A DNA stretch of 62,104 nt, counting the filler, from Asterionella formosa (taxonomy: Eukaryota): assembly GCA_002256025.1 (NCBI GenBank). It is 15 parts of 15 records of this genome, joined end to end, with 100 filler letters (N's around TTAATTAATTAA, not from the genome) between each part and the next. Parts side by side here need not be neighbours in the genome. Positions count along the whole stretch, not along the records: positions 12,485 to 16,546 come from NKIB01013748.1; 14 more parts are not named here. One strand, 5' to 3'. Positions 796 to 61,562 of this stretch are shown in pieces (position 1 is the first letter of the stretch; every line of letters begins with the position of its first letter). The notes under the pieces are model-generated. The model was not told the origin of the DNA. It ran no database searches and was given only the letters and a program-made list of their open reading frames with translations. A program made the translations under genes and the position numbers.

Positions 796-1352
796 ATACA
801 AATCTCGATTCTAAAGGCCGAAATGTGATGTACGTGCCCCGGCATCTATATACACATATCTGCAAATGACAAAAAAGTATAAAAGAAAAAAGGATAAAAA
901 AATCAACAACATCAGCACACAAAATCTTGAGCCGCCGCGCACCAGCCAGCGCGCCCCTTGATGATCATAAAATCCGGTTTGTCGCATGTATATACCAGGT
1001 ACCAGGTAGACTACCAGGCTACCAGGTACCCTAGACCCTACGTAGACCCTAGACCATGCTTTAGACTCTCTACCGTATGCTACCTGGTATGTAGCTAAAA
1101 ATATGCATCCACAAAAGCCGAGCTACCGGTACCTGGTACCAGTACCCTTGTACCGGTATCCCGGTTGTATGGAGTACCTGATACTACCGGTAAAAATGGA
1201 TATTTACACATTTACCGGTATATCATGAGCCACAGCACAGGAAAATGCATACCGGTACATACATCATCTTTTATGGGAGAGCAGGGAGAGGAGAGTAGGT
1301 ACACAATTTTTTGAAGCACAGATCTGTTGATGCCACGACCTCAAAACAAACA

Positions 1353-2609
1353 ATGATATCACTGTCAAGACAGACAACAACATCCACAATCCTTCGATTG
1401 CAGTGTTCCTTGCGTCTAGATCGAGTATTATTCCAACGTCGAAACATACTTTCCGACGCCATCAAAAAACGAGTTGATACAATTTGCGAACGACATGACA
1501 AAATCAACGAATTATTGAACTCGGGCGAGGGATCTTCTCTTGGAAAAGAATTCGGTTTGCTGATACCAGTTTCTCGACTGAGAGATAAGCTTGAAGTTTT
1601 AGACAAGGAAGAGCAATCGTTCCAGGAATTGCTAGCTGAGGCTTCAAGTACTGGAGACCGGGAGTTGGAACAGGAGTGCATTGGAGAGATAAAGAGACTG
1701 GAGGAAGTGAGATCGAAAGTTGAGAAACGCATTTTGGAAGCGGTCCTACCTAAGGACGAAGAAGATTACGGATCTGATGCAATCATTGAAGTCAGAGCAG
1801 GATCTGGAGGCGACGAAGCAGCTCTTTTCAGTGCTGCGATTGTGGAATTGTACACGAACTCGGCTAGGGCTTTGGGATTCAAGACAGAAATTCTGACCGA
1901 AACAAAGACTGAATTGGGAGGATTAAAGGAAGCTTCTCTGGCTGTTTCTAGCAGTGGTTCCTATGGATCTGGCATAAACGATGACGGTGACGACTATTCA
2001 ACCAATTTGCTCGCTGGCTTTGGTCCTTACGGTTTCTTCAAATTTGAGAGTGGAGTGCATCGAGTGCAGCGAGTTCCCATCAATGATGTTAAATTACAGA
2101 CAAGCGCCTGTTCGGTCGCAGTTTTGCCATCCTTGCCTGAAAGCTCAAACCACGGGGAGCTGCTTCCAAGCTCAGAATTAAGAATTGAAACTATGAGATC
2201 CTCCGGAAATGGAGGACAGAGTGTTAATACCACCGAGAGTGCCGTTCGGATTACTCACATACCTACCGGAATTACTGCAGCCATACAGGACGAAAGAAGT
2301 CAGCATAGGAACAGAGAGAAAGCTCTCAAGCTAGTCGCAGCTAGGGTGAGGGACAGACAGCAAGCAGAGGCCATTAAAGAAAGAGGTGAAGAACGCAAGG
2401 GTCTAATGGGAGGTGGCGATCGGAGTGAGCGCATTCGCACTTACAACTATCCCCAAGATCGAGTGACAGATCATCGATGCAAGCACTCAGAGTATGGTAT
2501 CTCGAAGTTGTTCGAAGGAAGGGTAGAAGACGGTTTGGTAATGGCATTCGCTCCTCGAATGCGAGAGATGCATCGTGACGAGCTTGTTCGAGATCTTAAA
2601 GGAGAATGA
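1353..2609 (+). CDS. prfA: Organellar (probably mitochondrial) class I peptide chain release factor, RF1 family
   Basis: Motifs EVRAGSGGDEAALF, FKFESGVHRVQRVP, GNGGQSVNTTESAVRITHIPTG and DRSERIRTYNYPQDRVTDHR. First ATG at 1353. The N-terminus is R/S/T/L-rich, like a mitochondrial presequence. Confidence 0.9.
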   Translation: MISLSRQTTTSTILRLQCSLRLDRVLFQRRNILSDAIKKRVDTICERHDKINELLNSGEGSSLGKEFGLLIPVSRLRDKLEVLDKEEQSFQELLAEASSTGDRELEQECIGEIKRLEEVRSKVEKRILEAVLPKDEEDYGSDAIIEVRAGSGGDEAALFSAAIVELYTNSARALGFKTEILTETKTELGGLKEASLAVSSSGSYGSGINDDGDDYSTNLLAGFGPYGFFKFESGVHRVQRVPINDVKLQTSACSVAVLPSLPESSNHGELLPSSELRIETMRSSGNGGQSVNTTESAVRITHIPTGITAAIQDERSQHRNREKALKLVAARVRDRQQAEAIKERGEERKGLMGGGDRSERIRTYNYPQDRVTDHRCKHSEYGISKLFEGRVEDGLVMAFAPRMREMHRDELVRDLKGE

Positions 2610-13475: not shown

Positions 13476-14190
13476 AGCAGCATGGGGACTCAGCTGTTAC
13501 TAGATTCTATGTAGGTGTCTATTCCGGATTGAGTACAGGGGTCGTATGAAGTGTGCCAGATACACGATAGCTATCTATGTATCAAGTTGGAAGCTGCACA
13601 ACTAATAGAAAGCGAGCTATCGGTATAGTAGAGGTACCAGGTACCATAGTAATAGCTTGATCGGCCGCAGGCTGAAGATGGCTGCGGAATACCTGGCTAC
13701 CATTGTAGCCCCCATCCCTAGTAGCTAGTCTTATTGCATAACTACCGCTCTCGTTAGTAAAGGCATTGTTACCTGGTACTAGGAGGGTAGGGCGGATTGC
13801 ATCATACAGATGCCGACTTGGTGTGACCTAGACTAAAGGTATCGGAAAAAATAAACTCATCGTTTCTGGCACTGTCGGCATACATGCTCTTGTGCGCTTT
13901 GTCCATTTTGGGAGCAGTTGGATAGGTTGCTGGAGATGCATGGAAACGCAAGTACTATTCTATAATATTACTGGGGTAATAGTGGCTATACAATCTCCAT
14001 CGTTTGCGGTGGATGCTACATAGAGTGAAAACAAAGTTATTAACTTAAGTAATGTTTAAGATCCAGCTTTAGATGGTACATCTAATTTTCTGAATGAAGG
14101 AAAAGGATCTTCCGATGGAAAGAAATCGGTACTCCTGTCGATGAATATAGATTGAGCTACAGAAATTATACAGACAGCGAGCTTAGAAGT

Positions 14191-14252
14191 TGAGTCTTTG
14201 ATTTAATGAGTGGAAATTTCAATTTCCGGTTTGTTTTGTCGCTGAAAGCAAC
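14191..14252 (-). promoter_or_regulatory. H2A 3' element: hairpin, histone-type stem-loop and CAAAGA box
   Basis: Minus strand reads GTTGCT-TTC-AGCGAC AAAACAAACC GGAAAT-TGAA-ATTTCC ACTCA TTAAAT CAAAGA. The same layout follows H2B. Confidence 0.7.
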
Positions 14253-14264
14253 AAGGATGTGAAT

Positions 14265-14645
14265 TTATTTCTTGGTTTCTGTCTTTTTTGGTAGAAGGAC
14301 CGCGTGAATGTTGGGAAGGACACCTCCAGACGCGATAGTAACTCCTCCCAGAAGCTTGTTCAACTCTTCATCGTTCTTGACAGCAAGAGTAATGTGACGA
14401 GGCACAATACGGCTCTTCTTGTTATCGCGAGCGGCGTTTCCGGCAAGCTCGAGAATCTCGGCGCAGAGGTACTCAAGGACAGCTGCTAGATAGACAGGAG
14501 CTCCTGCTCCCATTCGGGTGGCGTATTTGCCCTGACGCAAGTAACGTCCAATACGACCGACAGGGAACTGAAGGCCGGCCTTCGCAGAAGCCGTGGTGGA
14601 CTTCTTCTCTCCGCGTCCTCCCTTTCCTTTACCTTTTCCAGTCAT
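14265..14645 (-). CDS. H2A: Histone H2A
   Basis: [16 protein letters not shown]...[15 protein letters not shown]...RIVPRHI...[15 protein letters not shown]; 126 aa, no intron. Confidence 0.98.
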
Positions 14646-14975
14646 TCTTACGTTGTTTGTAGATTATTGACTTCAAGCTAATTTGTGACCGATGGGAACA
14701 ATTGTCGACAGCAAAATGGAATCACTTTTTCAGCGAGAAAAATAGCTGGCGCGTCGAAAACCCGGATCTCGTACCAGCTCCACACGCGTTCCACACGGCG
14801 CAATTTTTTCAAATATCCAATCTCAAAATAATTCTGGCGCGGTTCGTAGACTCTACGACAAAGTGTTACTACATCTACCCGGTACATCATGCCGGTTCCA
14901 GTCATGTCATTGTGAACCCAAACTGAACTCCCAACTCACAATTTCCATAAGCTCAGCTTAACTTTATTTTCAATC
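14646..14975. promoter_or_regulatory. Bidirectional H2A/H2B promoter region
   Basis: 330 bp between the divergent ATGs. Contains two CTGGCGCG and one ACGCGT (E2F/MCB-like; function inferred). Confidence 0.55.
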
Positions 14976-15400
14976 ATGGCCAAGACACCATCCAAGCAAT
15001 CCGCCAAGGCTCCCAAGAAAGCCTCCACAGGCAAGAAGGGAAAGAAGCGCACTGAATCATACTCTTCGTACATCTACAAGGTCCTCAAGCAGGTTCACCC
15101 TGATACGGGAATCTCCAAGAAGGGAATGTCCATTATGAACTCCTTCATCAACGATATCTTCGAGCGCATCGCCACTGAGGCTGGAAAGCTCGCCACCTAC
15201 AACAAGAAGGCAACTCTTTCTTCCCGTGAGATCCAAACTGCTGTCCGTCTTATGCTTCCTGGTGGTAAGTTCCTCGTGCGTGTTCTCTTAGTTCTACCTT
15301 TCTTTTTTCCAATGCTTACACTTTTTGCCAACAAACAGAGCTTGCCAAGCACGCCGTATCCGAGGGAACCAAGGCTGTCACCAAGTTCAGCAGCGCCTAA
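14976..15400 (+). CDS. H2B: Histone H2B; exons 14976-15264 and 15339-15400
   Basis: [23 protein letters not shown]. Removing a 74-nt GTAAGT...CAG intron (15265-15338) restores [24 protein letters not shown]. Confidence 0.97.
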
Positions 15401-15428
15401 ATCTTAAAATATCACTTTCAATTCAACA

Positions 15429-15486
15429 GTTGCTCTCAGCGACAACACAACCGGAATTTTCTAATTCCACTCAACGAACCAAAGAT
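15429..15486 (+). promoter_or_regulatory. H2B 3' element: hairpin, histone-type stem-loop and CAAAGA box
   Basis: GTTGCT-CTC-AGCGAC AACACAACC GGAATT-TTCT-AATTCC ACTCA ACGAAC CAAAGA. Confidence 0.7.
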
Positions 15487-15899
15487 CATTCTTTCTTTCA
15501 TTTCGGGATGTTGACCTGCGGTTAAAAAATTTCCCGCTTTCGACTGTACTGTATACTTCTTAAGTTGTTTCATTCACTTCACATTCAAGTCAAATAGAGT
15601 CTCAAGTGACGGAATACACTAGTGGTCGATCTACGATTCTGCCTCATAATTCCCACAACGAGGTGGGCACAATTTTGAATAGATTTTGTAGGTAGCTTTT
15701 TTTGTGACTTTTCTTGACCCCGTTTAGCATAACCATTTGATTTTGTATAAAATAAATATAAATTATCATGAACGAATTAACTGGTTCAAATATTATACGG
15801 TACCATTATACATAAGAATATGCCACCGAAAGGGAATACCGGTAAAGTACGGGTAAATGAATGTCCATGATGATCCTTGTCAGAGTGTGTCTGTTAGGC

Positions 15900-16070
15900 T
15901 GTTGATGTCGACAGGTGTCCGAAGACTAGGTAGTCTGAGGAATGTCTAAACGGAAATAGACAGGATTTATATAGCAGAAGAATCTGCAGACGAGCGGCGT
16001 GAGAAAGATCTTGACCGGTCATTCCAGGGCAGTACTGGAGCGCGCTAGAGTAGCGCCATATATTTCAACA
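15900..16070 (-). mobile_element. 171-bp LTR-like element
   Basis: TGTTGA...TCAACA termini and TATATAAA on the minus strand. Directly abuts a Copia gag fragment. Confidence 0.6.
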
Positions 16071-16546
16071 CTTCACATTCTTTCTCTTATTTCGTTGCTC
16101 GGGAGTTAATTCTCTCTTTTCTGTAGTATTGCCCTTGCTTCGGCAATCAACTGCCTTGTGGCCATACTTGCCACACTTCCTGCAGTCTCCCTTAAACTTG
16201 CTTTTTGAAAAGAAGGCCTGCTCGCCATTCTTATTCGTCTTGGTTTCGTCACGCACATACAAATCGTAATAGTCGCGTACATTCTTCTTGACCTCTTGGA
16301 TCGTGAGCTCGGAGCTCGCGAGACCAAATTTTCCAACCACCAAACTCTTGTAGACTTCCGGTAGGTTGTTGATAACATGGGCCACATAGGCACCATCCGA
16401 TATTGCGGAGCTCGTATGACTCAATCGTTCTCGAATTCTATCCAACTCCACAAACCAAATGTCGGGGTTCTCATTCTCGTTAATCGTGCATTTTGTCCAC
16501 TGACCTGACAAGGCAATCACATTTGCCATATTACTTGACTCGTACG
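16071..16546 (-). mobile_element. Ty1/Copia gag fragment with a CCHC zinc knuckle
   Basis: ENPDIWFVELDRIRERL...HVINNLPEVY and CRKCGKYGHKAVDC. Similar to the gag at 22910-23800. Confidence 0.85.
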
Positions 16547-20849: not shown

Positions 20850-22645
20850 GTGTTTCGTCCCTACAATGGAAGACGAGTGGTACGAAGACCAATACTGCGC
20901 ATCAAGCAACGGAACGGAGCGCTGGCTTGCGGACACTGGGGCTACCACGCACATCACTAGACTGACAAATACATGACAAACGTCGAAAATGTAAACGTCT
21001 CGGTCATTGTCGGTGACGGTAAAGAGGTGGTATGCACGAAACGAGGTGATATTCTGATTACCAACAAGACGTGTTCCATGTTACTACGCAAGGTACTCTA
21101 CACTCCTCACTTCCACAAGAATATCGTCAGCATCGGGCAATTTGTCAAGAACGGAGGGTGCGAGGCACGCATGAAGGGGTCTGAGTTGAGTCTACATAAG
21201 GAAGGGTACGACAACGAACTAACCTTTTCTTGTGAGGATCAAGGCGTCCTTTACTACTTCAAGGGAAAACGTACCCTACAGTCCGAAACGGTCTTGTCTA
21301 TTCACGACTCGACAACAAACCGTACACCTGATCCTACTCCAACGAATACCAAGACAGTGACGCAACTTCCTACGGCATAAACTACCAAGAAACCAACGCA
21401 AATTGACATCAACGAGGCCCACGACAAATACGGCCACATCAGCGAGGCATCCCTTCGCGCAACGCTAAAGTCCCTCGGTATTGAACCTACGGGCAAGATT
21501 CAGTCGTGTGAAGGCTGCGCACTAGCTAAGGCAAAGGCCAAAGCGGTACCTAAAGTCACGACCCTCAAGGCCTCTACTCCTGCTGAACGATTGTACGTGG
21601 ACATTTCAGGTCCCTACGAGAAATCTCTAATTGGAAGCAACTACTGGATTCTATTCGTGGATCAGTACACAGGCAAGGCATGGAGTTATTTTGTTAACAA
21701 GAAAAGTCTTTTGGCGAGCATCGCAGATGCCCTATTGACTACACTCAAGTCAGCGGGCTATGTAGTACGCTTCCTACGCTGGAAAATGCCGGTGAAAACA
21801 TGACCAGTCTAAGTATCGTCTGCACCACGCAGGGTATTCAGATTGAGTATACTGCCCCCCATACTCCTCAACAGAACTGAGTCGTGGAACGAAATTTTGT
21901 GACAATACAAGACCGAGCATGTGCCTCCATGTTCAGCGCAAAATTGTCAGACGAATACTAGGGGCTACTGTGGACCAAGAGTGTCCACATGCACATGCGA
22001 CTAACGAACTCTGTCGCTAACTCGAATACGGGAAAATGCCCCGATTGGCTTTTCTACGGCTTTCAGCCTAAGATTTATCCTCACCTGATTCAGTTTGGCA
22101 GGGTGGGGTGGGCTACGATTCGGACGCCAAGGCAGAAACTAACCCCAAAAAGTGTCAAATGTGTCATGCTTGGATACAGCCATGACCACGCCGGTGATAC
22201 CTACCGCATGTACAACGTTACAACGAAAAAGGTCTTCAACACAAGAGACCTTAAATGGGCCGACTGGCATGGAAATGCCAAACCCACAGCGGACATGGAC
22301 GAATTCACCACAGACGGATCCGGTATAGACGAGGAATTCGACACTCCTACTAAACCTACCAACGCAATGCCTCCTGACGAGCAAGGGGCTACTACACTAC
22401 TACCAACGAAACAAGACGATCCCAGTACTCCCAAGGGAGTGAGCTTTGCAGATTCCGTCGCAGGTGGTATGAATACGAACGAGCCTCGTACGAATAATGC
22501 TACGAAATCTACAAAGCTCGATCGAGAAATGAATAGGCTATCTACAGGCTTTGTGACCTCACCTACTCCTACTCGTGCAGGCACACGTCAGCAATCATCC
22601 GCAGCACGCACACTAATATTGGATGATGATGTCATTATTCATGAT
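20850..22645 (+). mobile_element. Degenerate Copia pol fragment (protease, GAG-pre-integrase, integrase)
   Basis: WLADTGATTH, HDKYGH...CEGC, YVDISGP...ILFVDQYTG and KCVMLGYS...YRMYN, with several stops and frameshifts. Interrupted at 22646 by another LTR. Confidence 0.88.
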
Positions 22646-22807
22646 TGTTCTACTAAGTGAGTGGAGTTGAGTTGTCAGTTGAGACTTGAATGTCTGACAA
22701 CACAATGAATATCTATATACAAATTTGGGAAGAGAACCTTAATAATTGGTCATGTGAATGATTACAAGATAGATCAAATAAGCTCACAATAAGGTTGGAT
22801 TAGAACA
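22646..22807 (+). mobile_element. 5' LTR (162 bp) of a nested Copia element
   Basis: TGTTCTA...TAGAACA inverted termini. A gag ATG follows ~100 bp later. Confidence 0.75.
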
Positions 22808-22909
22808 GAAGGTTTTATTACACAGAGCTTGTCTAGAAAGAGCTAGCATTGCAGCCAGACTGCAGAAGAATTTAACATGCTTGCAAGCGGATCAACTTCG
22901 TTTTGCAAC

Positions 22910-24840
22910 ATGACTGAAGACAAAGGTGAGACCATTCGCCTTGTGAAGTTTGATGGCGAGGACGCCAATTGGCATGAGTGGAGTGTGAAGACACTTGCAC
23001 CAGCCAAGACAAGAGGATTCAAGAATGCCTACATGAAGGATACCAATCCATGAAGCGATGCTGTCTACGAAACTACAGACAAAGACGATGTCAAGAAAAT
23101 CTACGAGATGAACGACCGCGCATACCAGCTTCTGATTATGAGTTGCACTGGGATTGCGTTTGGTTTGGTTAACCAAGCCAAGACAAAGAATCATCAAGAC
23201 GGCGATGCATTCCTTGCTTGGACCTACCTCAAGGCTCGCTATGTTCCTAATGCTACAAGCGACTTAATCCAACTGTCAGGACAGTTCAACAAGTGCATCT
23301 GTGAGGGGAAGACGCAAGACCCAGACGAGTGGTTCATCCAACTCGAGTTGTTGAGGAATCGAATGGCGACGATTGATTCTGCTTACGAAAAGAAGGATCT
23401 CGAGATGATTGCCCACATACGTGATAAACTACCTAAGGAGTAATCAGAAGTGGTAACAATGGTTGAGGCTATGCCCTCCCTAACACTAGAAGACCTTAAG
23501 GCCAAGATACGTGCGTTCTTCAAACGCAAGTTTAAGAACGAAAAGTCGGATGGCGAACTTGCTCTTGCTGCCTTTGGAACTAAGTTCAAAGGACTCTGCC
23601 GCTCTTGCGGCAAGCAAGGACACAAGGCAGCCGATTTTCGAGTCAAGAACAAGACACACGGCGACAGAAACAGGCCTCCTCCGAAAGGCGTCAAGTGTTT
23701 CAATTGCAACAAGCCTGTCGGACATATCGCAAAAGATTGCCCTGAACCCAAACGAGAACGTACTACAACGAAAGAGACCGGCATGTTTGTTGGCATGTGT
23801 ACGATTGACTACGAAGACATCGAAGCAAACGAAAAGAAACAAGATATGAATGACAAGTACAACGAGAACGACGATAAAGAGTGGACTTTTGTCGGTATTT
23901 GCGAGGAAATTATTGATGATTGTGATGTAAAATTTAATAATAAAGAGTTTTGTGACTCTGCTGTTGCTCCTCGCTCTATTGCCCTACAGGAGAATTGGGT
24001 CGCTGATACTGGAGCTACCGCCCATATCACAATGAGTGACGTCGGTATGACAAATGTACGCCCAGTCAGTGTCACAGTTGTCGTCGGCGATGGCTCGGAA
24101 ATCAAATGCACAAAACGCGGTGACATCAAGCTCACCAACGGAGAGAAGACTTTGACATTGAAGGATGTCCTGTACACGCCTAAGTTTCACAAGAACGTCG
24201 TCAGTTTGGGCGTCCTAATCCGTGACGTTTTTGACCTTTCAGTCACAGGGTCTACAATGACAGTTAAGAAAGGTCGTGGAGGACATATTTCATTTAACAG
24301 AGAGACCAATGGAGTTCTCTATTATTTTAAAGAAAGTTGCGCGAGTTGTGCCGATGTCGTATCCATGATTATTGCCCCATTGTCCCAGGGGGCCGATAGT
24401 ACCAAAAACTTGTCTACAAACACCCATACAGTTATGAGTGGGGAGGACAAAATGAAGTCACAGGATATCAACCAGGCACACGATATCTACGGGCACATTG
24501 GGGAAGCCGCACTACGTGCTACCTTCAAAGCACTGAAGATAGAACTTTCTGGTACCCTCCGGTCATGTGACGGATGCTCTAAGGCAAAGGCGAAAGCAAA
24601 AGCAGTTTCAAAAGTGTCGACTGTACAGGCCGAAAAACACGGTGAACGGATTTTCGTGGACACTTCAGGGCCGTACAAAAAGTCCATTGTGGGAAGCAAT
24701 TACTGGATACCGGTACTTGTTGTCGATCAATTCTCTGGAAAGTCATGGAGTTTTTTTGTTAAGAAGAAGAATTTACTATCCAAAATTGTGGACGAGCTAC
24801 TTATCAAGCTATTTGCAGCAAAATATGTCATCAAGTATCT
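22910..24840 (+). mobile_element. Nested Copia gag-protease-integrase ORF with two premature stops, truncated by the contig end
   Basis: MTEDKGETIRLVKFDG..., two zinc knuckles, WVADTGATAH, HDIYGH...CDGC and FVDTSGP. In-frame stops at 23051 and 23441. Confidence 0.9.
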
Positions 24841-25329
24841 NNNNNNNNNNNNNNNNNNNNNNNNNNNNNNNNNNNNNNNNNNNNTTAATTAATTAANNNN
24901 NNNNNNNNNNNNNNNNNNNNNNNNNNNNNNNNNNNNNNNNGCGGAACTTTGCCTTTTCTGGTACTAAGCAGCATGTCTCTGGAGTTGACCGAAGTACCTG
25001 GGTAAATAAGCAAACAAATCCCCATGTGTCCCCTGTGTTGTTTAAAACAGTAGAATAAACTAAAATCGAAAAGGAAGAAAAATTCAGAAAAGAATATTCA
25101 AATCAATGGAAATTTGTGCGTACGTACATAGATTCCTTTTTGAAATAGGTAAATATATATAGTGACACTATACATCGCAATATGTATATATGATACCACA
25201 GATTTTGTTTCTTATATAGTACTACAACCCGGCGGCTCGGCAAATATTTAAAAGTGCAATCCACGAGTGGTAGCAGGTACCAGTCCCACACAGGCTTAAA
25301 CAAGGTGCAGTTAGTTGCAGGAATAATGG

Positions 25330-37530: not shown

Positions 37531-38514
37531 ATGCCTTTTAATACCGGTACCAGGGTTTTTTGTAGTTTACCTTTGTACACAGTGCTAGTTGACTGCTAGT
37601 ACACTAGCTTTCACTACGGTCTTAAAAGGTTGCACTGGGGGTTGAATTTTTTGCATGTACCACCCTGGTACTTCTTTTGACTTGCACTCTTCACCTGTTA
37701 TTAGGAGTACCAGGTACTGCAAGTTGCTGTCATTTGGCTTAAATAAACATTATAATTGAGGATAAAGATAGCTAAACATTTTGTTTCAGCAAAATTTCCG
37801 CCACTTGCTGATACCAGGTACCGAGTACATTGTTACATGGGGTAGCCTTTGTGGTATGGAATACACATCGAAGGACCGTGGCGAACCGTGGTCTGCACAT
37901 GCCATTTTTTCCTGACGAAGAAGATCGTCGAGCGAAGCCAACGGTTTCAGCATCAGACACACACTTATTATCATGAAGCCTATATGGTACCGGGAGTCTA
38001 TATACACAGTGCCTAGTACCTGGTACCAACCAGTACCGGTATATGAAATTGTCAAGAAAACCTACAGAATCTTACGTATCAGTACACAGCACGTATTTGT
38101 ATTGACTTGAGAGAACATCCTGAATGATGCACGTATGACATAAGATTCTCATGAGATTTCCATGTGGTGACGTAGGCGCCTAGTTCGCCAAGCGAACACA
38201 TCACAAGACCACACCGTCAGTTAGGTATATTTTTTCCATGTTCCTACTTTTTGTACGCAAAAGGTTGGACAGAGCGAATCATGATCACAGCATCCTATTA
38301 TTGGCGGAGAATATCATATATGTGTTCAGAAATGTATACACATATGCATCAAAGATACAACTTCATATATATATATATATATATTTGATGCGAACACCCC
38401 AACCCAATTCCAACCCAATTCTTGAGCACGGTACAATACGTAAGCAGGCATGAAATGTTGTAATGGGAAGGGTTGAACTACGGCACAGCATTGATTGGAA
38501 CAACCCACCAAAAA

Positions 38515-39686
38515 ATGATACAAACTCGAATGAATCCTCCTGATTCCATCGGAGACGCCGATCCGGCCCAACTGTTTGATTGGAGTGGTCCTTTGGTTGA
38601 TTTGAATCGCTCGCTGAGCCCCTCGCTGACTCTGACACCCTCAGAGAGTCGTTTGTGGTTTCCTCCCATTGACGACTGCGACGACGACGACGACGACGAG
38701 CCACTTGTCGTTGGCTTCGAGCGCAGCAGCAGCGACAGAAAGCGCATCATCAGCAGCGAAGCGCCGTCGCGTCGCAAGAAGAAGCTCAAGAGTCTGCCCA
38801 AGCGACCGCTCTCTGCGTATAACTTTTTCTTCCAGACGGAGCGCTCCCTGTTGATGCAGGACAGGGCCATTGTGCCGTCGTTGAAAGTTGGATTCGAAGA
38901 CTTGGGAAGGATCGTTGGCAAGAAGTGGAGAGAACTGTCAGAAGCGGAGCGAGAAACATACAATAGAAAAGCGATTGGCGACAGTGAGCGATACAGGAAG
39001 GAAATGGAAGACTACAAGAAACGAGAAACGGACAAGCGGCGCGGCGTAAAGGTCAGCGAGCCAGCGAGTCCAGCATTTTCACTGCCACCGACCCCCTATC
39101 GCTTCCCGACTTTTGAGCATCCGCATGGAATGCAGTCACCACCGATGGTTCAGTCGCAGCAATACTTTGGAAGGGCTCCCTACACGACGACTACCTCTGG
39201 AGCCCCCTTTTCTCCTTTGCCTCTGACGCATTCATCCTCAGACCACCCCAAGCACCACGAATACTCGGATCGCTACAAACGATTCTGTCCCCCTCCAGGA
39301 GGGCCAGGGATCTGTAAGGGACCTATTCCTTCTTCCGCCTTTCCACTTAGACCAAACCAAGAGGTGTTAATTCAAGATCAAAATGGACAATTGCAAAAAT
39401 ATAGAGTCCAGTATGCTGTCATGTCCATGACGGAGGCAGCTGCCAAATCGTACATGGAAGAAATGAACATGGCACTTCATCACACCCCTTCGTCACGGTA
39501 CGTTTATCATAAATTATTATCCTTGTGGTTCATTCGTGTGACGCTTGCTGTCCTGTACCTTGTGTGTGCTGGGGCTTACACATCTCTCGTTTTTCATTCA
39601 ATAGTGCCCATATGCCCCCTATGTATTATAACAGCAGTCATGCACAGAATCACAGGGATAATGAAGCATCACCATATCCACTGTAG
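38515..39686 (+). CDS. HMG-box transcription factor; predicted intron 39498-39604
   Basis: PKRPLSAYNFFFQTER...GFEDLGRIVGKKWRELS...RYRKEM. A GTACGT donor, GCTTAC branch-like site and TAG acceptor give a last exon AHMPPMYY...PYPL*. Confidence 0.85.
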
Positions 39687-40764
39687 CAAATCATATGTGT
39701 ATGTATTACATGCATATGATCTGATTGCAATATACAGACACTTGCTCTTGCAAGTAGTAATTATTCATGTTTTGTCCGTATTCACACATTGTAAAACTGC
39801 AAAGGCATTTTATGAACATATACTAATGGAATTATAGTATGGTATTACCTCTGGTTGAAAATAATTGTGTCAAATTGCCAGCACCACTAGTGTCTCAACT
39901 GTTTGCATATTAAGGATTTTTACATAGCCAACATACCACCTTTCTACATGAGGGTTGTTGGCTTACTTCCAAAAATGTAATGGTTATTAGTTACATAGAC
40001 ATGAACATATACTCTAGGGAAGATCACTGTCTTGTTGGCAGGAAGTGAGTTTCATTTTTTCAACATAAATATTTTATTGGCACACATCACCTGTATCTTC
40101 CTTGCCCTCCTTGTCACCCTTGCTATCTCTTTTGTCTTGATTCATGTCTCACAACATCACACTGGTTGATTGTTGACTTGGTTTTGTTAGCACAGTGATT
40201 GACCCCTCATTTCGCATTGCTTCATTGGCATCATAAAACAATATAAATTTAGATAAGAAAACACAAGACTATTTTCCAAAAATTTTCCATTGTCCTTTAT
40301 GTCAACAGACATTTGAAGTACAAAAGGTTGCATGTAGTAGTCAAAATTTTCCAAGTCTTCCGGGTTCGTTATTGAAGCTAAAATAGTTTCCCCGAGTTTT
40401 TTGGCGAGGCTTGTCAATAAAATCATATCGTACTTTTTAAGACTAGTTCAAAGTTATGCATCATTCTTGTTCAACATTGATTTGATACCACTAAAAATCA
40501 AGTAGCATGAAAAAGCTAGTGACTCTCAAACGACCATGGCAGTAACTTTTCAGACCTCTATGGATCTAAACAAAACCTTTAGGCTACAGGCCTGTCTATT
40601 TGGATTCATTGGAGACAATGTATGACTGTAACAGTTAATGGTTGAATTTTTCAAAACATAAGGACAGTTTAGTAGTAGGGAGACAAGAATTTTCTACCAG
40701 CTTTGTCCCGTATTTTTCATGTATCATTGTATGATGGTATGTCATGCATGTTCACTAGTAGTAA

Positions 40765-49793: not shown

Positions 49794-52700
49794 ACCTCTT
49801 ATCATTAGAATGCTGGAAAGCTAGCTGTATACCTGTACCGGTACGCGTGTGTTTCGTCCCTACAATGGAAGACGAGTGGTACGAAGACCAATACTGCGCA
49901 TCAAGCAACGGAACGGAGCGCTGGCTTGCGGACACTGGGGCTACCACGCACATCACTAGACTGACAAATACATGACAAACGTCGAAAATGTAAACGTCTC
50001 GGTCATTGTCGGTGACGGTAAAGAGGTGGTATGCACGAAACGAGGTGATATTCTGATTACCAACAAGACGTGTTCCATGTTACTACGCAAGGTACTCTAC
50101 ACTCCTCACTTCCACAAGAATATCGTCAGCATCGGGCAATTTGTCAAGAACGGAGGGTGCGAGGCACGCATGAAGGGGTCTGAGTTGAGTCTACATAAGG
50201 AAGGGTACGACAACGAACTAACCTTTTCTTGTGAGGATCAAGGCGTCCTTTACTACTTCAAGGGAAAACGTACCCTACAGTCCGAAACGGTCTTGTCTAT
50301 TCACGACTCGACAACAAACCGTACACCTGATCCTACTCCAACGAATACCAAGACAGTGACGCAACTTCCTACGGCATAAACTACCAAGAAACCAACGCAA
50401 ATTGACATCAACGAGGCCCACGACAAATACGGCCACATCAGCGAGGCATCCCTTCGCGCAACGCTAAAGTCCCTCGGTATTGAACCTACGGGCAAGATTC
50501 AGTCGTGTGAAGGCTGCGCACTAGCTAAGGCAAAGGCCAAAGCGGTACCTAAAGTCACGACCCTCAAGGCCTCTACTCCTGCTGAACGATTGTACGTGGA
50601 CATTTCAGGTCCCTACGAGAAATCTCTAATTGGAAGCAACTACTGGATTCTATTCGTGGATCAGTACACAGGCAAGGCATGGAGTTATTTTGTTAACAAG
50701 AAAAGTCTTTTGGCGAGCATCGCAGATGCCCTATTGACTACACTCAAGTCAGCGGGCTATGTAGTACGCTTCCTACGCTGGAAAATGCCGGTGAAAACAT
50801 GACCAGTCTAAGTATCGTCTGCACCACGCAGGGTATTCAGATTGAGTATACTGCCCCCCATACTCCTCAACAGAACTGAGTCGTGGAACGAAATTTTGTG
50901 ACAATACAAGACCGAGCATGTGCCTCCATGTTCAGCGCAAAATTGTCAGACGAATACTAGGGGCTACTGTGGACCAAGAGTGTCCACATGCACATGCGAC
51001 TAACGAACTCTGTCGCTAACTCGAATACGGGAAAATGCCCCGATTGGCTTTTCTACGGCTTTCAGCCTAAGATTTATCCTCACCTGATTCAGTTTGGCAG
51101 GGTGGGGTGGGCTACGATTCGGACGCCAAGGCAGAAACTAACCCCAAAAAGTGTCAAATGTGTCATGCTTGGATACAGCCATGACCACGCCGGTGATACC
51201 TACCGCATGTACAACGTTACAACGAAAAAGGTCTTCAACACAAGAGACCTTAAATGGGCCGACTGGCATGGAAATGCCAAACCCACAGCGGACATGGACG
51301 AATTCACCACAGACGGATCCGGTATAGACGAGGAATTCGACACTCCTACTAAACCTACCAACGCAATGCCTCCTGACGAGCAAGGGGCTACTACACTACT
51401 ACCAACGAAACAAGACGATCCCAGTACTCCCAAGGGAGTGAGCTTTGCAGATTCCGTCGCAGGTGGTATGAATACGAACGAGCCTCGTACGAATAATGCT
51501 ACGAAATCTACAAAGCTCGATCGAGAAATGAATAGGCTATCTACAGGCTTTGTGACCTCACCTACTCCTACTCGTGCAGGCACACGTCAGCAATCATCCG
51601 CAGCACGCACACTAATATTGGATGATGATGTCATTATTCATGATTGTTCTACTAAGTGAGTGGAGTTGAGTTGTCAGTTGAGACTTGAATGTCTGACAAC
51701 ACAATGAATATCTATATACAAATTTGGGAAGAGAACCTTAATAATTGGTCATGTGAATGATTACAAGATAGATCAAATAAGCTCACAATAAGGTTGGATT
51801 AGAACAGAAGGTTTTATTACACAGAGCTTGTCTAGAAAGAGCTAGCATTGCAGCCAGACTGCAGAAGAATTTAACATGCTTGCAAGCGGATCAACTTCGT
51901 TTTGCAACATGACTGAAGACAAAGGTGAGACCATTCGCCTTGTGAAGTTTGATGGCGAGGACGCCAATTGGCATGAGTGGAGTGTGAAGACACTTGCACC
52001 AGCCAAGACAAGAGGATTCAAGAATGCCTACATGAAGGATACCAATCCATGAAGCGATGCTGTCTACGAAACTACAGACAAAGACGATGTCAAGAAAATC
52101 TACGAGATGAACGACCGCGCATACCAGCTTCTGATTATGAGTTGCACTGGGATTGCGTTTGGTTTGGTTAACCAAGCCAAGACAAAGAATCATCAAGACG
52201 GCGATGCATTCCTTGCTTGGACCTACCTCAAGGCTCGCTATGTTCCTAATGCTACAAGCGACTTAATCCAACTGTCAGGACAGTTCAACAAGTGCATCTG
52301 TGAGGGGAAGACGCAAGACCCAGACGAGTGGTTCATCCAACTCGAGTTGTTGAGGAATCGAATGGCGACGATTGATTCTGCTTACGAAAAGAAGGATCTC
52401 GAGATGATTGCCCACATACGTGATAAACTACCTAAGGAGTAATCAGAAGTGGTAACAATGGTTGAGGCTATGCCCTCCCTAACACTAGAAGACCTTAAGG
52501 CCAAGATACGTGCGTTCTTCAAACGCAAGTTTAAGAACGAAAAGTCGGATGGCGAACTTGCTCTTGCTGCCTTTGGAACTAAGTTCAAAGGACTCTGCCG
52601 CTCTTGCGGCAAGCAAGGACACAAGGCAGCCGATTTTCGAGTCAAGAACAAGACACACGGCGACAGAAACAGGCCTCCTCCGAAAGGCGTCAAGTGTTTC

Positions 52701-53833
52701 AATTGCAACAAGCCTGTCGGACATATCGCAAAAGATTGCCCTGAACCCAAACGAGAACGTACTACAACGAAAGAGACCGGCATGTTTGTTGGCATGTGTA
52801 CGATTGACTACGAAGACATCGAAGCAAACGAAAAGAAACAAGATATGAATGACAAGTACAACGAGAACGACGATAAAGAGTGGACTTTTGTCGGTATTTG
52901 CGAGGAAATTATTGATGATTGTGATGTAAAATTTAATAATAAAGAGTTTTGTGGCTCTGCTGTTGCTCCTCGCTCTATTGCCCTACAGGAGAATTGGGTC
53001 GCTGATACTGGAGCTACCGCCCATATCACAATGAGTGACGTCGGTATGACAAATGTACGCCCAGTCAGTGTCACAGTTGTCGTCGGCGATGGCTCGGAAA
53101 TCAAATGCACAAAACGCGGTGACATCAAGCTCACCAACGGAGAGAAGACTTTGACATTGAAGGATGTCCTGTACACGCCTAAGTTTCACAAGAACGTCGT
53201 CAGTTTGGGCGTCCTAATCCGTGACGTTTTTGACCTTTCAGTCACAGGGTCTACAATGACAGTTAAGAAAGGTCGTGGAGGACATATTTCATTTAACAGA
53301 GAGACCAATGGAGTTCTCTATTATTTTAAAGAAAGTTGCGCGAGTTGTGCCGATGTCGTATCCATGATTATTGCCCCATTGTCCCAGGGGGCCGATAGTA
53401 CCAAAAACTTGTCTACAAACACCCATACAGTTATGAGTGGGGAGGACAAAATGAAGTCACAGGATATCAACCAGGCACACGATATCTACGGGCACATTGG
53501 GGAAGCCGCACTACGTGCTACCTTCAAAGCACTGAAGATAGAACTTTCTGGTACCCTCCGGTCATGTGACGGATGCTCTAAGGCAAAGGCGAAAGCAAAA
53601 GCAGTTTCAAAAGTGTCGACTGTACAGGCCGTACTACACGGTGAAGGAATTTTCGTGGACACTTCAGGGCCGTACAAAAAGTCCATTGTGGGAAGCAATT
53701 ACTGGATACTTGTTGTCGATCAATTCTCTGGAAAGTCATGGAGTTTTTTTGTTAAGAAGAAGAATTTACTATCCAAAATTGTGGACGAGCTACTTATCAA
53801 GCTATTTGCAGCAAAATATGTCATCAAGTATCT
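49794..53833 (+). mobile_element. Near-identical duplicate of contig 20795-24840 (nested Copia elements; LTR at 51645-51806)
   Basis: Same start and end. The differences I found are a few substitutions and a 6-bp indel in the last 900 bp. Confidence 0.95.
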
Positions 53834-54678
53834 NNNNNNNNNNNNNNNNNNNNNNNNNNNNNNNNNNNNNNNNNNNNTTAATTAATTAANNNNNNNNNNN
53901 NNNNNNNNNNNNNNNNNNNNNNNNNNNNNNNNNTGGGGGGTAGAGGGGATTCACATGATTGTGACGACATTCCCGGCTCAAAATCTTGCACCGAAATAGG
54001 TACTGACAAGGTTTCAAATGACCATATGTTTGGCGGATACTATGGGCATCCTTAGTGCTTATCCCTTCCATTGCTATGAACATTAATGGAGTTGTTACTA
54101 AAAAGTGTGAATGGCAGTGTATCTAATTAATACACCATCAATGTAGGAACAGGCAAGGTTGCCTAGAGGTCAGGATGCGAATTGACTTGCCGATGGGTCG
54201 AATGTTAATACACATGCTATCTAGAAATAGATGTTTCAAATGCTACAAAAATATTCTGGACACTTAGCTATAGAAAGTACTTTGCCATATGTACTGTACA
54301 TAGTTCGCTGCATTCAGTATTCGCCAGCTGTTGTTTTCATTGATTTGGAATCAAATTTTCTCGACACTTGTTGCGATTCAAGACCTTAGCGACCGTAACT
54401 GATTTAAAAACTGGGCACCAACAGGCTTAGTGGCAGGCAACAGTTTCTCACCCGCCGTACCGTGATCTCCCAGGGAACAAACATATAAATTAAATGTTTT
54501 CAATAAGAGGGAAAAATCCCCGAAGGCTCTTTTCCAACCAGACATGAGTTTGTTTATGTCAACGTAATCTCCAGAGTTCAAGGAATCGAGCATGCTTGCC
54601 ACACCGGACCAGGCGTACAAGTATCGAATAGGCTTTTGATCGGGTACCTACACTGTTCATCACAAACTCAAATAGTGA

Positions 54679-60167: not shown

Positions 60168-61562
60168 CTAAAAACTGTGTCTGAAAATTGTCAACAGCCC
60201 CATCACATCCTTGCCACCATTTTGTCGCAGCGCAAGACATTGCATTTTGACAACGGTGAAGTCATTGTCGAGTGCAAGTTGTCGAATATAGCCTTCCTGA
60301 TGCGCAAATCTAGCACATTCTCGCAAGGCAAAGGGATGATTGTTATCATCTGCGTTCAAATATTCCGTCGAGAAGGCAAAAACACCGCTCTCATTCAGTG
60401 CTGCCTTGACTTTCTTAAACAACTCACCCAAATCCCCAATGTAGCAAAAAACATCACAAGCAAAAATAAGATCAAACTTGTCGTCGCTTGCATCCAGCAC
60501 GCGTGTGACATCTCCAACTATGAGAACTTCGTAGCACTCCCTCGCGTAGGCCTTTTCAATCATTTCAGGTGAAAGATCTACGCCGATCAAGTGATCGGCA
60601 CAGTCTCGGAAGGCCATTCCTGACAAGCCAGTTCCGCATCCAAGGTCGCAGGCGCGTTTGGCCCATGATGTCTTTCTCGTCTTGATAGTCATATCAACCA
60701 ATTTTCTGAGTTTGATTGGTGTCTCGTACTTGAGTTTGCCCAATAGCATGTCGTCAAAGTTGGCAGCAAAGGTAGAATAAAGCGACTTGATGTAGTCTTC
60801 TGGACATCTATCAACTATTGTTTCATTGGCTGAAAGGGTTGCCAACCAAAATTGAGCCGTCTCGCGCAGATTGTGAGAGGACGGAAATGATCGGAAGGCA
60901 TCTTGAAAATGAGAAATGCATCTGGGTCGATTCGTCTCAACTGGCTGTAGCTTGCGAAATAACGTTCCAAGCCGAAGGTGAATTCTGCCGATATAGAGCT
61001 GGTCCCCATCCCCTATTCGTTGCAGCGTGTGTTGGATATTTTTGTAAAACAACAATTCCTTTTCAGAAAGATCTCGCTTTGATGGATGTTTTGACGAGTT
61101 CTTTCCGATCAACTTGCTTTCCAGCAGTCGCTTGGCTTCGTCCTCTCGAGGTTCTACCAACAAACGTACAAGAGCCCCAGCAAAAGCACTTGGCGTAATG
61201 CTGGAATGTTGATTCCAAAGAGCTACAGTCTTCCGAAGGGCCTCCATTCTTTCGTTGTGATTATTGGATGCCATGGAAAGGGCAAAATAACCTGCTGGTT
61301 TGTCTGGGGCCATCTTGATAGCTCGTTTGGCCAGGAATATTGCTTCAGGCCGTTTGGATTTGTCGTTTTTGGCTTGCTCTGCAATGAAACTCGCCAGTCT
61401 CGAAACTGCACTAGCTTTCAGTGGTATCTCTTGTAATTTTGCTCTCAGTGATTCTTCTTTTGCTGTGGTAGACATTGTCATTGGCGATGACTTAGATTCC
61501 GTCATCTTGACAACGACAACAAAATTAGTGAAGATACGGACGTTCCACAAGGAACAAATCAT
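60168..61562 (-). CDS. Class I SAM-dependent methyltransferase with a TPR-like N-terminus (COG4976-like)
   Basis: YIKSLYSTFAANFDDMLLGKLKYETP, DLGCGTGLSG, GVDLSPEM, DVFCYIGDL, FAFSTE and RFAH. Confidence 0.88.
   Translation of the reverse strand: MICSLWNVRIFTNFVVVVKMTESKSSPMTMSTTAKEESLRAKLQEIPLKASAVSRLASFIAEQAKNDKSKRPEAIFLAKRAIKMAPDKPAGYFALSMASNNHNERMEALRKTVALWNQHSSITPSAFAGALVRLLVEPREDEAKRLLESKLIGKNSSKHPSKRDLSEKELLFYKNIQHTLQRIGDGDQLYIGRIHLRLGTLFRKLQPVETNRPRCISHFQDAFRSFPSSHNLRETAQFWLATLSANETIVDRCPEDYIKSLYSTFAANFDDMLLGKLKYETPIKLRKLVDMTIKTRKTSWAKRACDLGCGTGLSGMAFRDCADHLIGVDLSPEMIEKAYARECYEVLIVGDVTRVLDASDDKFDLIFACDVFCYIGDLGELFKKVKAALNESGVFAFSTEYLNADDNNHPFALRECARFAHQEGYIRQLALDNDFTVVKMQCLALRQNGGKDVMGLLTIFRHSF

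Follow-up and report, generated by a model that had tools for sequence, protein, structure and literature searches.

The animal way of ending histone messages without poly(A) is the subject of continuing work, which asks whether it exists as a complete system outside animals and green algae, and a divergent pair of histone genes, H2A and H2B, in a stretch of DNA from the diatom Asterionella formosa (62,104 nucleotides taken from assembly GCA_002256025.1; the whole of this stretch is called the window below) raises the question of whether it is used there. In the animal pathway, as given in the available part of a recent preprint (10.64898/2026.10.14.759114), SLBP binds a stem-loop (SL) in the 3' untranslated region (UTR), the U7 small nuclear ribonucleoprotein binds a downstream element, and CPSF73 cuts the transcript, which receives no poly(A). 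Both genes of the window carry behind the stop codon a module whose general form, in diatom-like contigs, is an A/C linker, then an SL that starts with GG and has a 6-bp stem and a 4-nt loop, next AC(Y)CA or GCCC as the 3' flank, and, 10-11 nt past the stem, the box CAAAG(A). We consider it probable that these two 3' flanks are a genuine, though diverged, signal for histone mRNA 3'-end formation of the SLBP/U7 type, consisting of an SL and a downstream element.

The order of elements behind each stop codon is the same, namely a first hairpin (hairpin 1), a linker of A and C only, the SL, ACTCA, six nucleotides and CAAAGA. In the H2A gene, which lies on the minus strand, hairpin 1 (GTTGCT-TTC-AGCGAC; 14238..14252) starts 12 nt past the stop and has a 6-bp stem including one U-G pair (7 bp with the flanking U-A) and a 3-nt loop. 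It is followed by the linker AAAACAAACC (14228..14237) and by the SL GGAAAT-TGAA-ATTTCC (14212..14227), which starts 37 nt past the stop, and the segment 14195..14211 holds the flank ACTCA, a putative cleavage region, the spacer TTAAAT and the box CAAAGA (14200..14195), which resembles a histone downstream element (HDE). In the H2B gene, on the plus strand, hairpin 1 (GTTGCT-CTC-AGCGAC; 15429..15443) starts 28 nt past the stop, the linker is AACACAACC (15444..15452), the SL GGAATT-TTCT-AATTCC (15453..15468) starts 52 nt past the stop, and the segment 15469..15485 holds ACTCA, the spacer ACGAAC and the HDE-like box CAAAGA (15480..15485). Both linkers are 9-10 nt long and end in AACC, and the flanks are thus of the type AACC...ACTCA (...AAACC / ACTCA and ...ACAACC / ACTCA). 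Pattern matching recovered both copies of hairpin 1 exactly, and the three-part 3' element that a preliminary description of this DNA had claimed for the two genes was found letter for letter where it had been placed. The same is true of the compensatory difference that it had reported between the stems: the fifth pair is A-U in one SL and U-A in the other, that is, swapped on both sides. The exact pattern GTTGCTNNNAGCGAC occurs twice in the window, at these two genes alone, as does the pattern ACTCA-N6-CAAAGA.

For both 3' UTRs, the minimum free energy structure and the centroid structure consist of exactly two hairpins (z -3.0 and -3.25, against 200 dinucleotide shuffles). Hairpin 1 folds with -7.1 kcal/mol in H2A (z -3.99) and with -6.0 kcal/mol in H2B (z -2.31), and it is in both genes more stable than the SL, for which we obtained -3.5 kcal/mol in H2A and -5.4 kcal/mol in H2B (z -4.09 in the latter).

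Relatives of the locus were gathered blind to the motif, by an H2A protein search of metagenome contigs, and the best 80 loci of 506 confirmed relatives (L001-L080) were kept; a stop codon could be located in 79 of them, L074 being the locus without one. A perfect 6-bp hairpin that starts with GG and is preceded by an A/C-rich flank lies at most 260 nt past the H2A stop in 62 of the 79 loci, a count read from the scan which includes contigs with animal-type stem-loops. At least 92% H2A identity is reached by 26 loci, and the hairpin stands behind H2A in 19 of the 25 that were assessable, L010 being set aside because it ends 15 nt past the stop. The six loci of this group without the hairpin are L017, L023 and L035, whose H2A has a ...SQDY tail, L001 and L005, with canonical tails, and L004, whose sequence ends 125 nt past the H2A stop. 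The module is also absent from the locus L022 (87% identity), which has the same ...SQDY tail, and thus four H2A genes of this H2A.X type (L017, L022, L023 and L035) have neither SL nor box in the locus, as expected of a replication-linked signal. The H2A of L029 ends in ...SQDF, yet it carries the module.

The hairpin is not confined to H2A. Both strands were scanned for hairpins with GG...CC-type ends, six standard pairs and a 4-nt loop, preceded by 10 bases of which 8 or more are A/C, and the same hairpin was found behind H2B, H3, H4 and Lys-rich H1-like open reading frames (ORFs) of diatom-like contigs, and the orientation of the module relative to the mRNA is constant for genes of either strand. 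The alignment of other histone 3' flanks, proposed in the preliminary description as a check, thus revealed the motif on all five classes in the diatom-like relatives. A covariance model made from 33 sites of the relatives only, with the window left out, was then run over both strands of the window with filters off. Its two best matches are the H2A flank (14190..14241, minus strand; 46.0 bits, E 9.7e-7) and the H2B flank (15439..15490, plus strand; 40.3 bits, E 1.2e-5), while the next-best match in the 62 kb, counting both strands, reaches only 15.9 bits (E 0.59).

The 33 sites of the relatives and the two of the window make an alignment of 35 distinct sites. The stem is invariant at four positions: the first two pairs are always G-C, the third is always A-U, and the sixth does not change either. 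The loop begins with U in every site, and A and C stand at -3/-2 before the stem without exception (35/35); the G-C at stem position 2 (columns 16/29) is likewise found in 35/35 sites, including the two of the window. The fourth pair is U-A in 25 sites, A-U in 5 and G-C in 5, and the fifth is U-A in 27, A-U in 6 and C-G in 2. These two pairs vary on both sides (18 cells), and their covariation score was reached by none of 500 shuffles.

The downstream box is fixed in place. CAAAG starts at +10 after the stem in 16 sites and at +11 in 13, that is, in 29 of 36 diatom-like sites, whereas chance, at a frequency of 0.0015 per position in these loci, would give about 0.11 sites. Between stem and box the sequence shows no conservation and mostly differs between genes of one contig, and therefore gene conversion does not explain the box. 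The sites added by the covariance model include further ones with CAAAGA at +10/+11, behind the H2A genes of L006, L013, L014 and L015 and the H2B genes of L013 and L014. Lineages further removed each have their own box in a fixed place, such as CGGAAG (L027/28), CGAAAGA (L040/41), CAAAAAAGAAAAA (L054/55/60), AAAAATAAAGCAA (L070/75), an AAAGTC-type box (L046/51/61/80) and a TGGAT-like one (L062/63), and the lineage-specific box is common to different histone genes of a contig. A co-evolving guide RNA would lead to boxes of just this kind, lineage-specific and constant in their distance. In L057, an SL that passes the Rfam Histone3 threshold is followed, about 11-12 nt past the stem, by a CAAAGAGAG box with the same CAAAGA core as the diatom-like box and about the same spacing.

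The SL and the CAAAGA box are, therefore, a conserved, histone-specific 3' module on all histone classes of the diatom-like relatives. Its histone specificity, over five gene classes, and the fixed CAAAGA spacing, which is kept across a variable spacer and fits a U7-type downstream element, support on this point the preliminary description, which had seen in the box a possible site of snRNA pairing. The flanks themselves can vary by histone class: in L020 and L021 those of H3 are AACC-SL-ACCCA and those of H2A, H2B and H1-like genes AACA-SL-GCCC(T/A), and in L018 the H4 and H1-like sites are of the ACCCA type and those of H2A and H2B of the GCCC type.

By analogy with the animal pathway, an SLBP homologue would bind the SL and its A/C flank, the CAAAGA box would pair with the 5' end of a U7-like small nuclear RNA (snRNA) bearing UCUUUG, and a CPSF73-type nuclease would cut between SL and box, a few nucleotides past the stem, in or after ACTCA. 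The 3' UTRs predicted in this way would be of about 58 nt for H2A and about 73 nt for H2B, poly(A)-less and coupled to DNA replication. Hairpin 1 would most likely be an accessory, in that its closed helix and the G/U-free linker would shield the weak, A-U-rich SL from pairing with the rest of the UTR, which is the least secure step of this proposal; alternatively, it may be a putative second protein-binding site.

It is quite possible that hairpin 1 has no function, being a local palindrome that the two genes share via common descent or gene conversion and that recurs elsewhere by chance or by a tendency of these UTRs. The uneven identity between the two window genes argues against blanket gene conversion, since the arms of hairpin 1 are identical at 12/12 positions, whereas the SL loop agrees at 1/4 and the spacer at 2/6. 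Moreover, the U-G pair favours the helix in the mRNA sense in both genes, although they lie on opposite DNA strands. Hairpin 1 keeps a steady distance from the SL (9-10 nt), a point in its favour; its distance from the stop differs (12 vs 28 nt), which suits a functionless element. The idea that hairpin 1 equalises the distance from stop to SL was dropped, because the two genes differ already before the hairpin.

The intervals between stop and SL were also folded across the relatives, omitting their last 8 nt, counting identical intervals once and dropping those below 20 nt. Compared with dinucleotide shuffles, the diatom-like intervals have a mean z of -1.40 (n=33, p 2e-6), which differs from that of equal-length controls taken 30 nt beyond the stem (mean z -0.11, n=31; Mann-Whitney p 2e-4). 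The corresponding values in other lineages are -0.54 (n=59) for the intervals and -0.08 (n=58) for the controls, with about -0.9 for intervals of at least 30 nt. Motifs were counted in 81 of 92 intervals, leaving out the window and the near-duplicates L014, L021, L028, L041, L055 and L059. The pattern TGCT.{3,12}AGC[AG] is found in 8/81 intervals and in 0/81 controls (shuffle mean 0.45; 8 reached in 0 of 500 shuffles), and the stricter TTGCT...AGCRA in 3/81 intervals against 0.04 expected. All intervals with TGCT-loop-AGC belong to H2A or H2B genes, from several lineages, and their loops are pyrimidine-rich. Thus, both the folding and the recurrence speak for more than a chance palindrome.

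Other results favour a hairpin 1 without function and weigh against its part in the proposed signal. The relaxed TGCT..AGC pattern was picked after inspection of the data; the total number of 4-mer hairpin cores is much the same in intervals and controls (179 vs 175). In the nearest relatives, L002 and L003, hairpin 1 has no alignable counterpart in sequence or position, and most histone genes of the relatives lack it. Among the diatom-like intervals, the sense strand is the more stable in 16 and the antisense strand in 17, and, showing no sense bias, this comparison lends no support to hairpin 1 as an RNA element; in the other lineages, the antisense strand is the more stable in 21 intervals and the sense strand in 7 (p 0.006). 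In summary, the two window genes do share an upstream helix, and these 3' UTRs truly tend to form one, while hairpin 1 as a general conserved element is only partly supported. Of the additional conserved hairpin of the preliminary description, what stands is the identity between the two window genes, the structured intervals and the recurrence of TGCT-loop-AGC; its conservation does not extend to the nearest relatives or to most genes, and no sense bias accompanies it.

A further case of an extra helix directly before a histone stem-loop was seen on the minus strand of L028, where the 3' flank of H2B has two tandem hairpins starting with GG, GGTTTC-CCCG-GAAACC and, 10 nt further on, GGTGTT-ATTT-AACACC.

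Several observations have to be set against the assignment of the module to the SLBP/U7 type. The Rfam model of the histone stem-loop, RF00032, has no match in the window, either at E<=10 (in 13900..15800), at E<=5 (whole window) or at the gathering threshold. The third loop position is A in H2A (UGAA) and C in H2B (UUCU), and thus the U that, together with the G-C at stem position 2, is called diagnostic in the available part of the preprint (10.64898/2026.10.14.759114) is missing. The U7 model RF00066 finds nothing in the window at E<=5. The preliminary description had also proposed a search for a small RNA with UCUUUG and an Sm-like site; in the 292,234 bases of window and loci, TCTTTG with an Sm-like site occurs only in the antisense of the L025 stem-loop region, and hence these 292 kb offered no real candidate. 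Regarding the alignment, the figure of 100% paired stems is so by construction, since the filter demanded six perfect pairs, and the variety of pair types alone is evidence. Finally, CAAAG is missing from 7 of the 36 diatom-like sites, which have boxes of their own, CAAACAAAC-like in L002 and L003 and AAACAGA-like in L007, L011, L012 and L029.

The relatives help to place the SL in spite of the missing Rfam score. In 16 diatom-like loci, all 18 Rfam matches at E<=1 are to RF00032 (Histone3), and all lie at SL sites; one of the 18, the H4 site of L018 with 36.1 bits, passes the gathering threshold of 34 bits, and the other 17 score 20.2-31.9 bits. These weak scores make the SL family a diverged branch of the known one, the copies of the window being the most diverged. 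U is found at loop position 3 in 32 of the 33 sites of the relatives. As regards the accepted features of a histone stem-loop, the window sites have a 6-bp/4-nt SL after the stop, the G-C at position 2, an A/C-rich 5' flank and an ACCCA-like 3' flank, and they lack the loop U and stay below the Rfam gathering threshold. As regards the HDE, they have a purine-containing box at a fixed short distance behind non-conserved sequence.

The alternative that we regard as unlikely, while taking it seriously, is that the SL is kept as a regulatory or SLBP site and that the 3' ends are made by ordinary downstream cleavage and polyadenylation, CAAAGA being the site of another factor or an auxiliary poly(A) element. 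The loops without the diagnostic U and the lack of a U7 match, both in the window and in the 292 kb of window and loci, would agree with it. Canonical diatom H2A proteins that belong to the same 90%-identity cluster as that of the window come from MMETSP transcriptomes. The MMETSP libraries are said to have been poly(A)-selected, and polyadenylated histone forms may thus exist, which also counts against a purely poly(A)-less ending. Lopez and Samuelsson reportedly described in 2008 polyadenylated histone mRNAs that also bear stem-loop signals. The geometry of the module tells against this alternative: the box lies 10-11 nt from the stem over a variable spacer in five histone classes, which fits a cleavage signal measured from two sites, while a poly(A) signal needs no tie to the stem. 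In addition, lineage-specific boxes suggest a co-evolving RNA partner. A moss H2B makes both forms, according to the available part of PMC13130582, which is in favour of the alternative; diatom poly(A) signals, to its disadvantage, as described in the available part of PMC11529991, are UAA trimers and not CAAAGA.

That the shared elements act instead as DNA, as palindromic protein-binding, termination or replication-linked sites at the ends of histone pairs, seems to us very improbable, because, even if most upstream hairpins, as Watson-Crick palindromes, fold as well on one strand as on the other and the cores that recur most, ATTG/CAAT, TTGC/GCAA and TGCT/AGCA, are palindromic half-sites, the module is never reversed with respect to the mRNA, its linker and flanks are strand-asymmetric (A/C-only in the sense strand), the stem changes are compensatory and the relatives score on an RNA model, RF00032.

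An SLBP/U7-type signal in these genes can be compared in some detail with that of metazoans. The two have in common the 6-bp stem and 4-nt loop with a G-C second pair and a U as first loop base, an A/C-rich 5' flank, an ACNCA 3' flank, an SL 37-52 nt past the stop and, shortly downstream of it at a fixed distance, a box that contains purines. The likeness extends to the presence of the signal on five histone classes in the relatives, to its absence from several H2A.X-type genes, and to L057, whose SL passes RF00032 and is followed by the CAAAGA core at about the same spacing. The window differs in a stem that is A-U-rich after two G-C pairs and weak (-3.5 and -5.4 kcal/mol), in loops without U at position 3, in having no RF00032 score, in the intron of one of the genes, and in the more stable extra hairpin 9-10 nt upstream of the SL.

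The green algae Chlamydomonas and Volvox offer another comparison, being unicellular phototrophs with divergent histone pairs that end in stem-loops (PMC13525598, in its available part). Poly(A)-less stem-loop histone mRNAs and SLBP have been confirmed in green algae, a moss and a fern (PMC13130582, likewise), and purine-rich downstream elements have been reported in green algae by the preprint 10.64898/2026.10.14.759114, as far as its available text goes. However, these algae belong to another supergroup, their stem-loops pass RF00032 while those of the window do not, and no extra hairpin is described in the available parts of PMC13525598 and PMC13130582.

Regarding protists, the preliminary description had it that stem-loops alone were reported in some of them. 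Stem-loops have indeed been reported, but this statement understates the literature: in the available text of their survey, Zhao, Bond and Ni Leathlobhair (2026; 10.64898/2026.10.14.759114) place stem-loops behind histone genes in 214 of 310 protozoan species, describe those of stramenopiles as lying further downstream and being less conserved, and report LSM10/LSM11 in stramenopiles, naming Ectocarpus. The same text limits the HDE scan to 'AAA' or 'AAGA', describes a U7 search by RF00066 only, with U7-like RNA outside animals only in Rozella, and names neither diatoms nor a second hairpin; its supplementary tables may list diatom sites. Our literature searches found no paper joining diatom or Phaeodactylum histones with SLBP or U7 snRNA, and, on diatom histone mRNA polyadenylation, nothing on diatom histone 3' ends; for the diatom poly(A) signal in general, the available part of PMC11529991 gives the UAA trimers mentioned above. 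Our finding thus extends a known system, and surveys have already placed stem-loops in this lineage.

What is gained is that environmental contigs collected blind to the motif reveal diatom-like algae that keep the SL on five histone classes together with a box at a fixed distance. With the Rfam model, a standard search misses the stem-loops of the window entirely, and crude purine scans cannot separate a real fixed box from an A-rich background, and therefore surveys may under-call or mis-describe this lineage. With the lineage-specific boxes at hand, U7 5' ends could be predicted for a range of protists. An SLBP/U7-type signal predicts a diatom U7-like RNA with a defined 5' sequence, co-varying with the box between lineages, and transcript ends a few bases past the stem. 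If functional, the extra hairpin would be a new accessory of the histone 3' system.

A bolder version, which we hold to be doubtful, is that diatoms have a complete U7-type system and, besides, a third RNA element without animal counterpart. In such a system a U7-like snRNA with UCUUUG at its 5' end would measure the cut from CAAAGA, the lineages with AAACAGA or CAAACAAAC would have compensating U7 5' ends, and the upstream hairpin of UGCU, pyrimidine loop and AGC, which recurs on H2A and H2B messages in several distant lineages of protists, would be a separate protein site or a guard of the SL. If hairpin 1 were such a separate site, H2A and H2B messages would be regulated distinctly from those of H3 and H4.

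The H2A gene (14265..14645, minus strand; stop codon 14265..14267) encodes a protein of 126 aa that matches the Pfam families PF16211 (1.3e-20) and PF00125 (1.2e-13). Its C-terminus is canonical, without an SQ[DE]Y tail. The 90%-identity cluster of this H2A has 815 members, and, among the 40 members listed, 2 bear diatom names (Rhizosolenia and Stauroneis). A divergent intergenic region of 330 bp (14646..14975), which would hold the promoters of both genes, separates the two start codons.

The H2B gene, divergent from H2A, has a coding span of 14976..15400 on the plus strand, in which exon 1 (14976..15264; PF00125 2.8e-19) and exon 2 (15339..15400; stop codon TAA at 15398..15400) flank an intron of 74 nt (15265..15338). 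The latter has GT..AG ends (GTAAGT...ACAG) and splits the Glu codon in ...LPG-E-LAKH.... The spliced product has 116 aa and a C-terminus identical to that of the intronless H2B of L002, while the unspliced frame runs into nonsense past exon 1. Judged from these reading frames, the intron is real, and the preliminary description was right in calling this H2B intron-containing. At this site, the intron is absent from every diatom-like relative H2B gene seen, all of which read through. Introns are reportedly present in some Volvox histone genes. In four lake or freshwater metatranscriptome runs, all from one study, a share of 0.43-0.59 of the sampled words of the stretch is present, which is consistent with expression and by itself shows only that very similar sequence is found in RNA libraries. 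Other runs have smaller shares, which carry no weight as evidence.

About 580 nt past the H2B box, an ORF of 154 aa on the minus strand (16065..16529) contains a CX2CX4HX4C zinc-knuckle string, gag-like in appearance; it has no Pfam match at 1e-5. Elsewhere in the window there are two ORF pairs with identical Pfam scores lying exactly 28,999 nt apart (21989..24892 and 50988..53885), each with a retroviral polymerase SH3-like domain followed by a Pol beta-barrel domain. Either a Copia-like retroelement is present twice or a large stretch has been directly duplicated. A 15-mer is repeated in the window at 23249 and 52248. The other genes, at 1311..2609 (plus strand), 38473..39837 (plus strand) and 60168..61562 (minus strand), include a peptide-chain release factor (PCRF and RF-1 domains), an HMG-box protein and a methyltransferase, and are unrelated to the histone 3' module. 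Among the relatives, L054 has a 5S rRNA gene (1166..1284, minus strand; 109.6 bits) within a histone cluster whose stem-loops pass the Rfam threshold.

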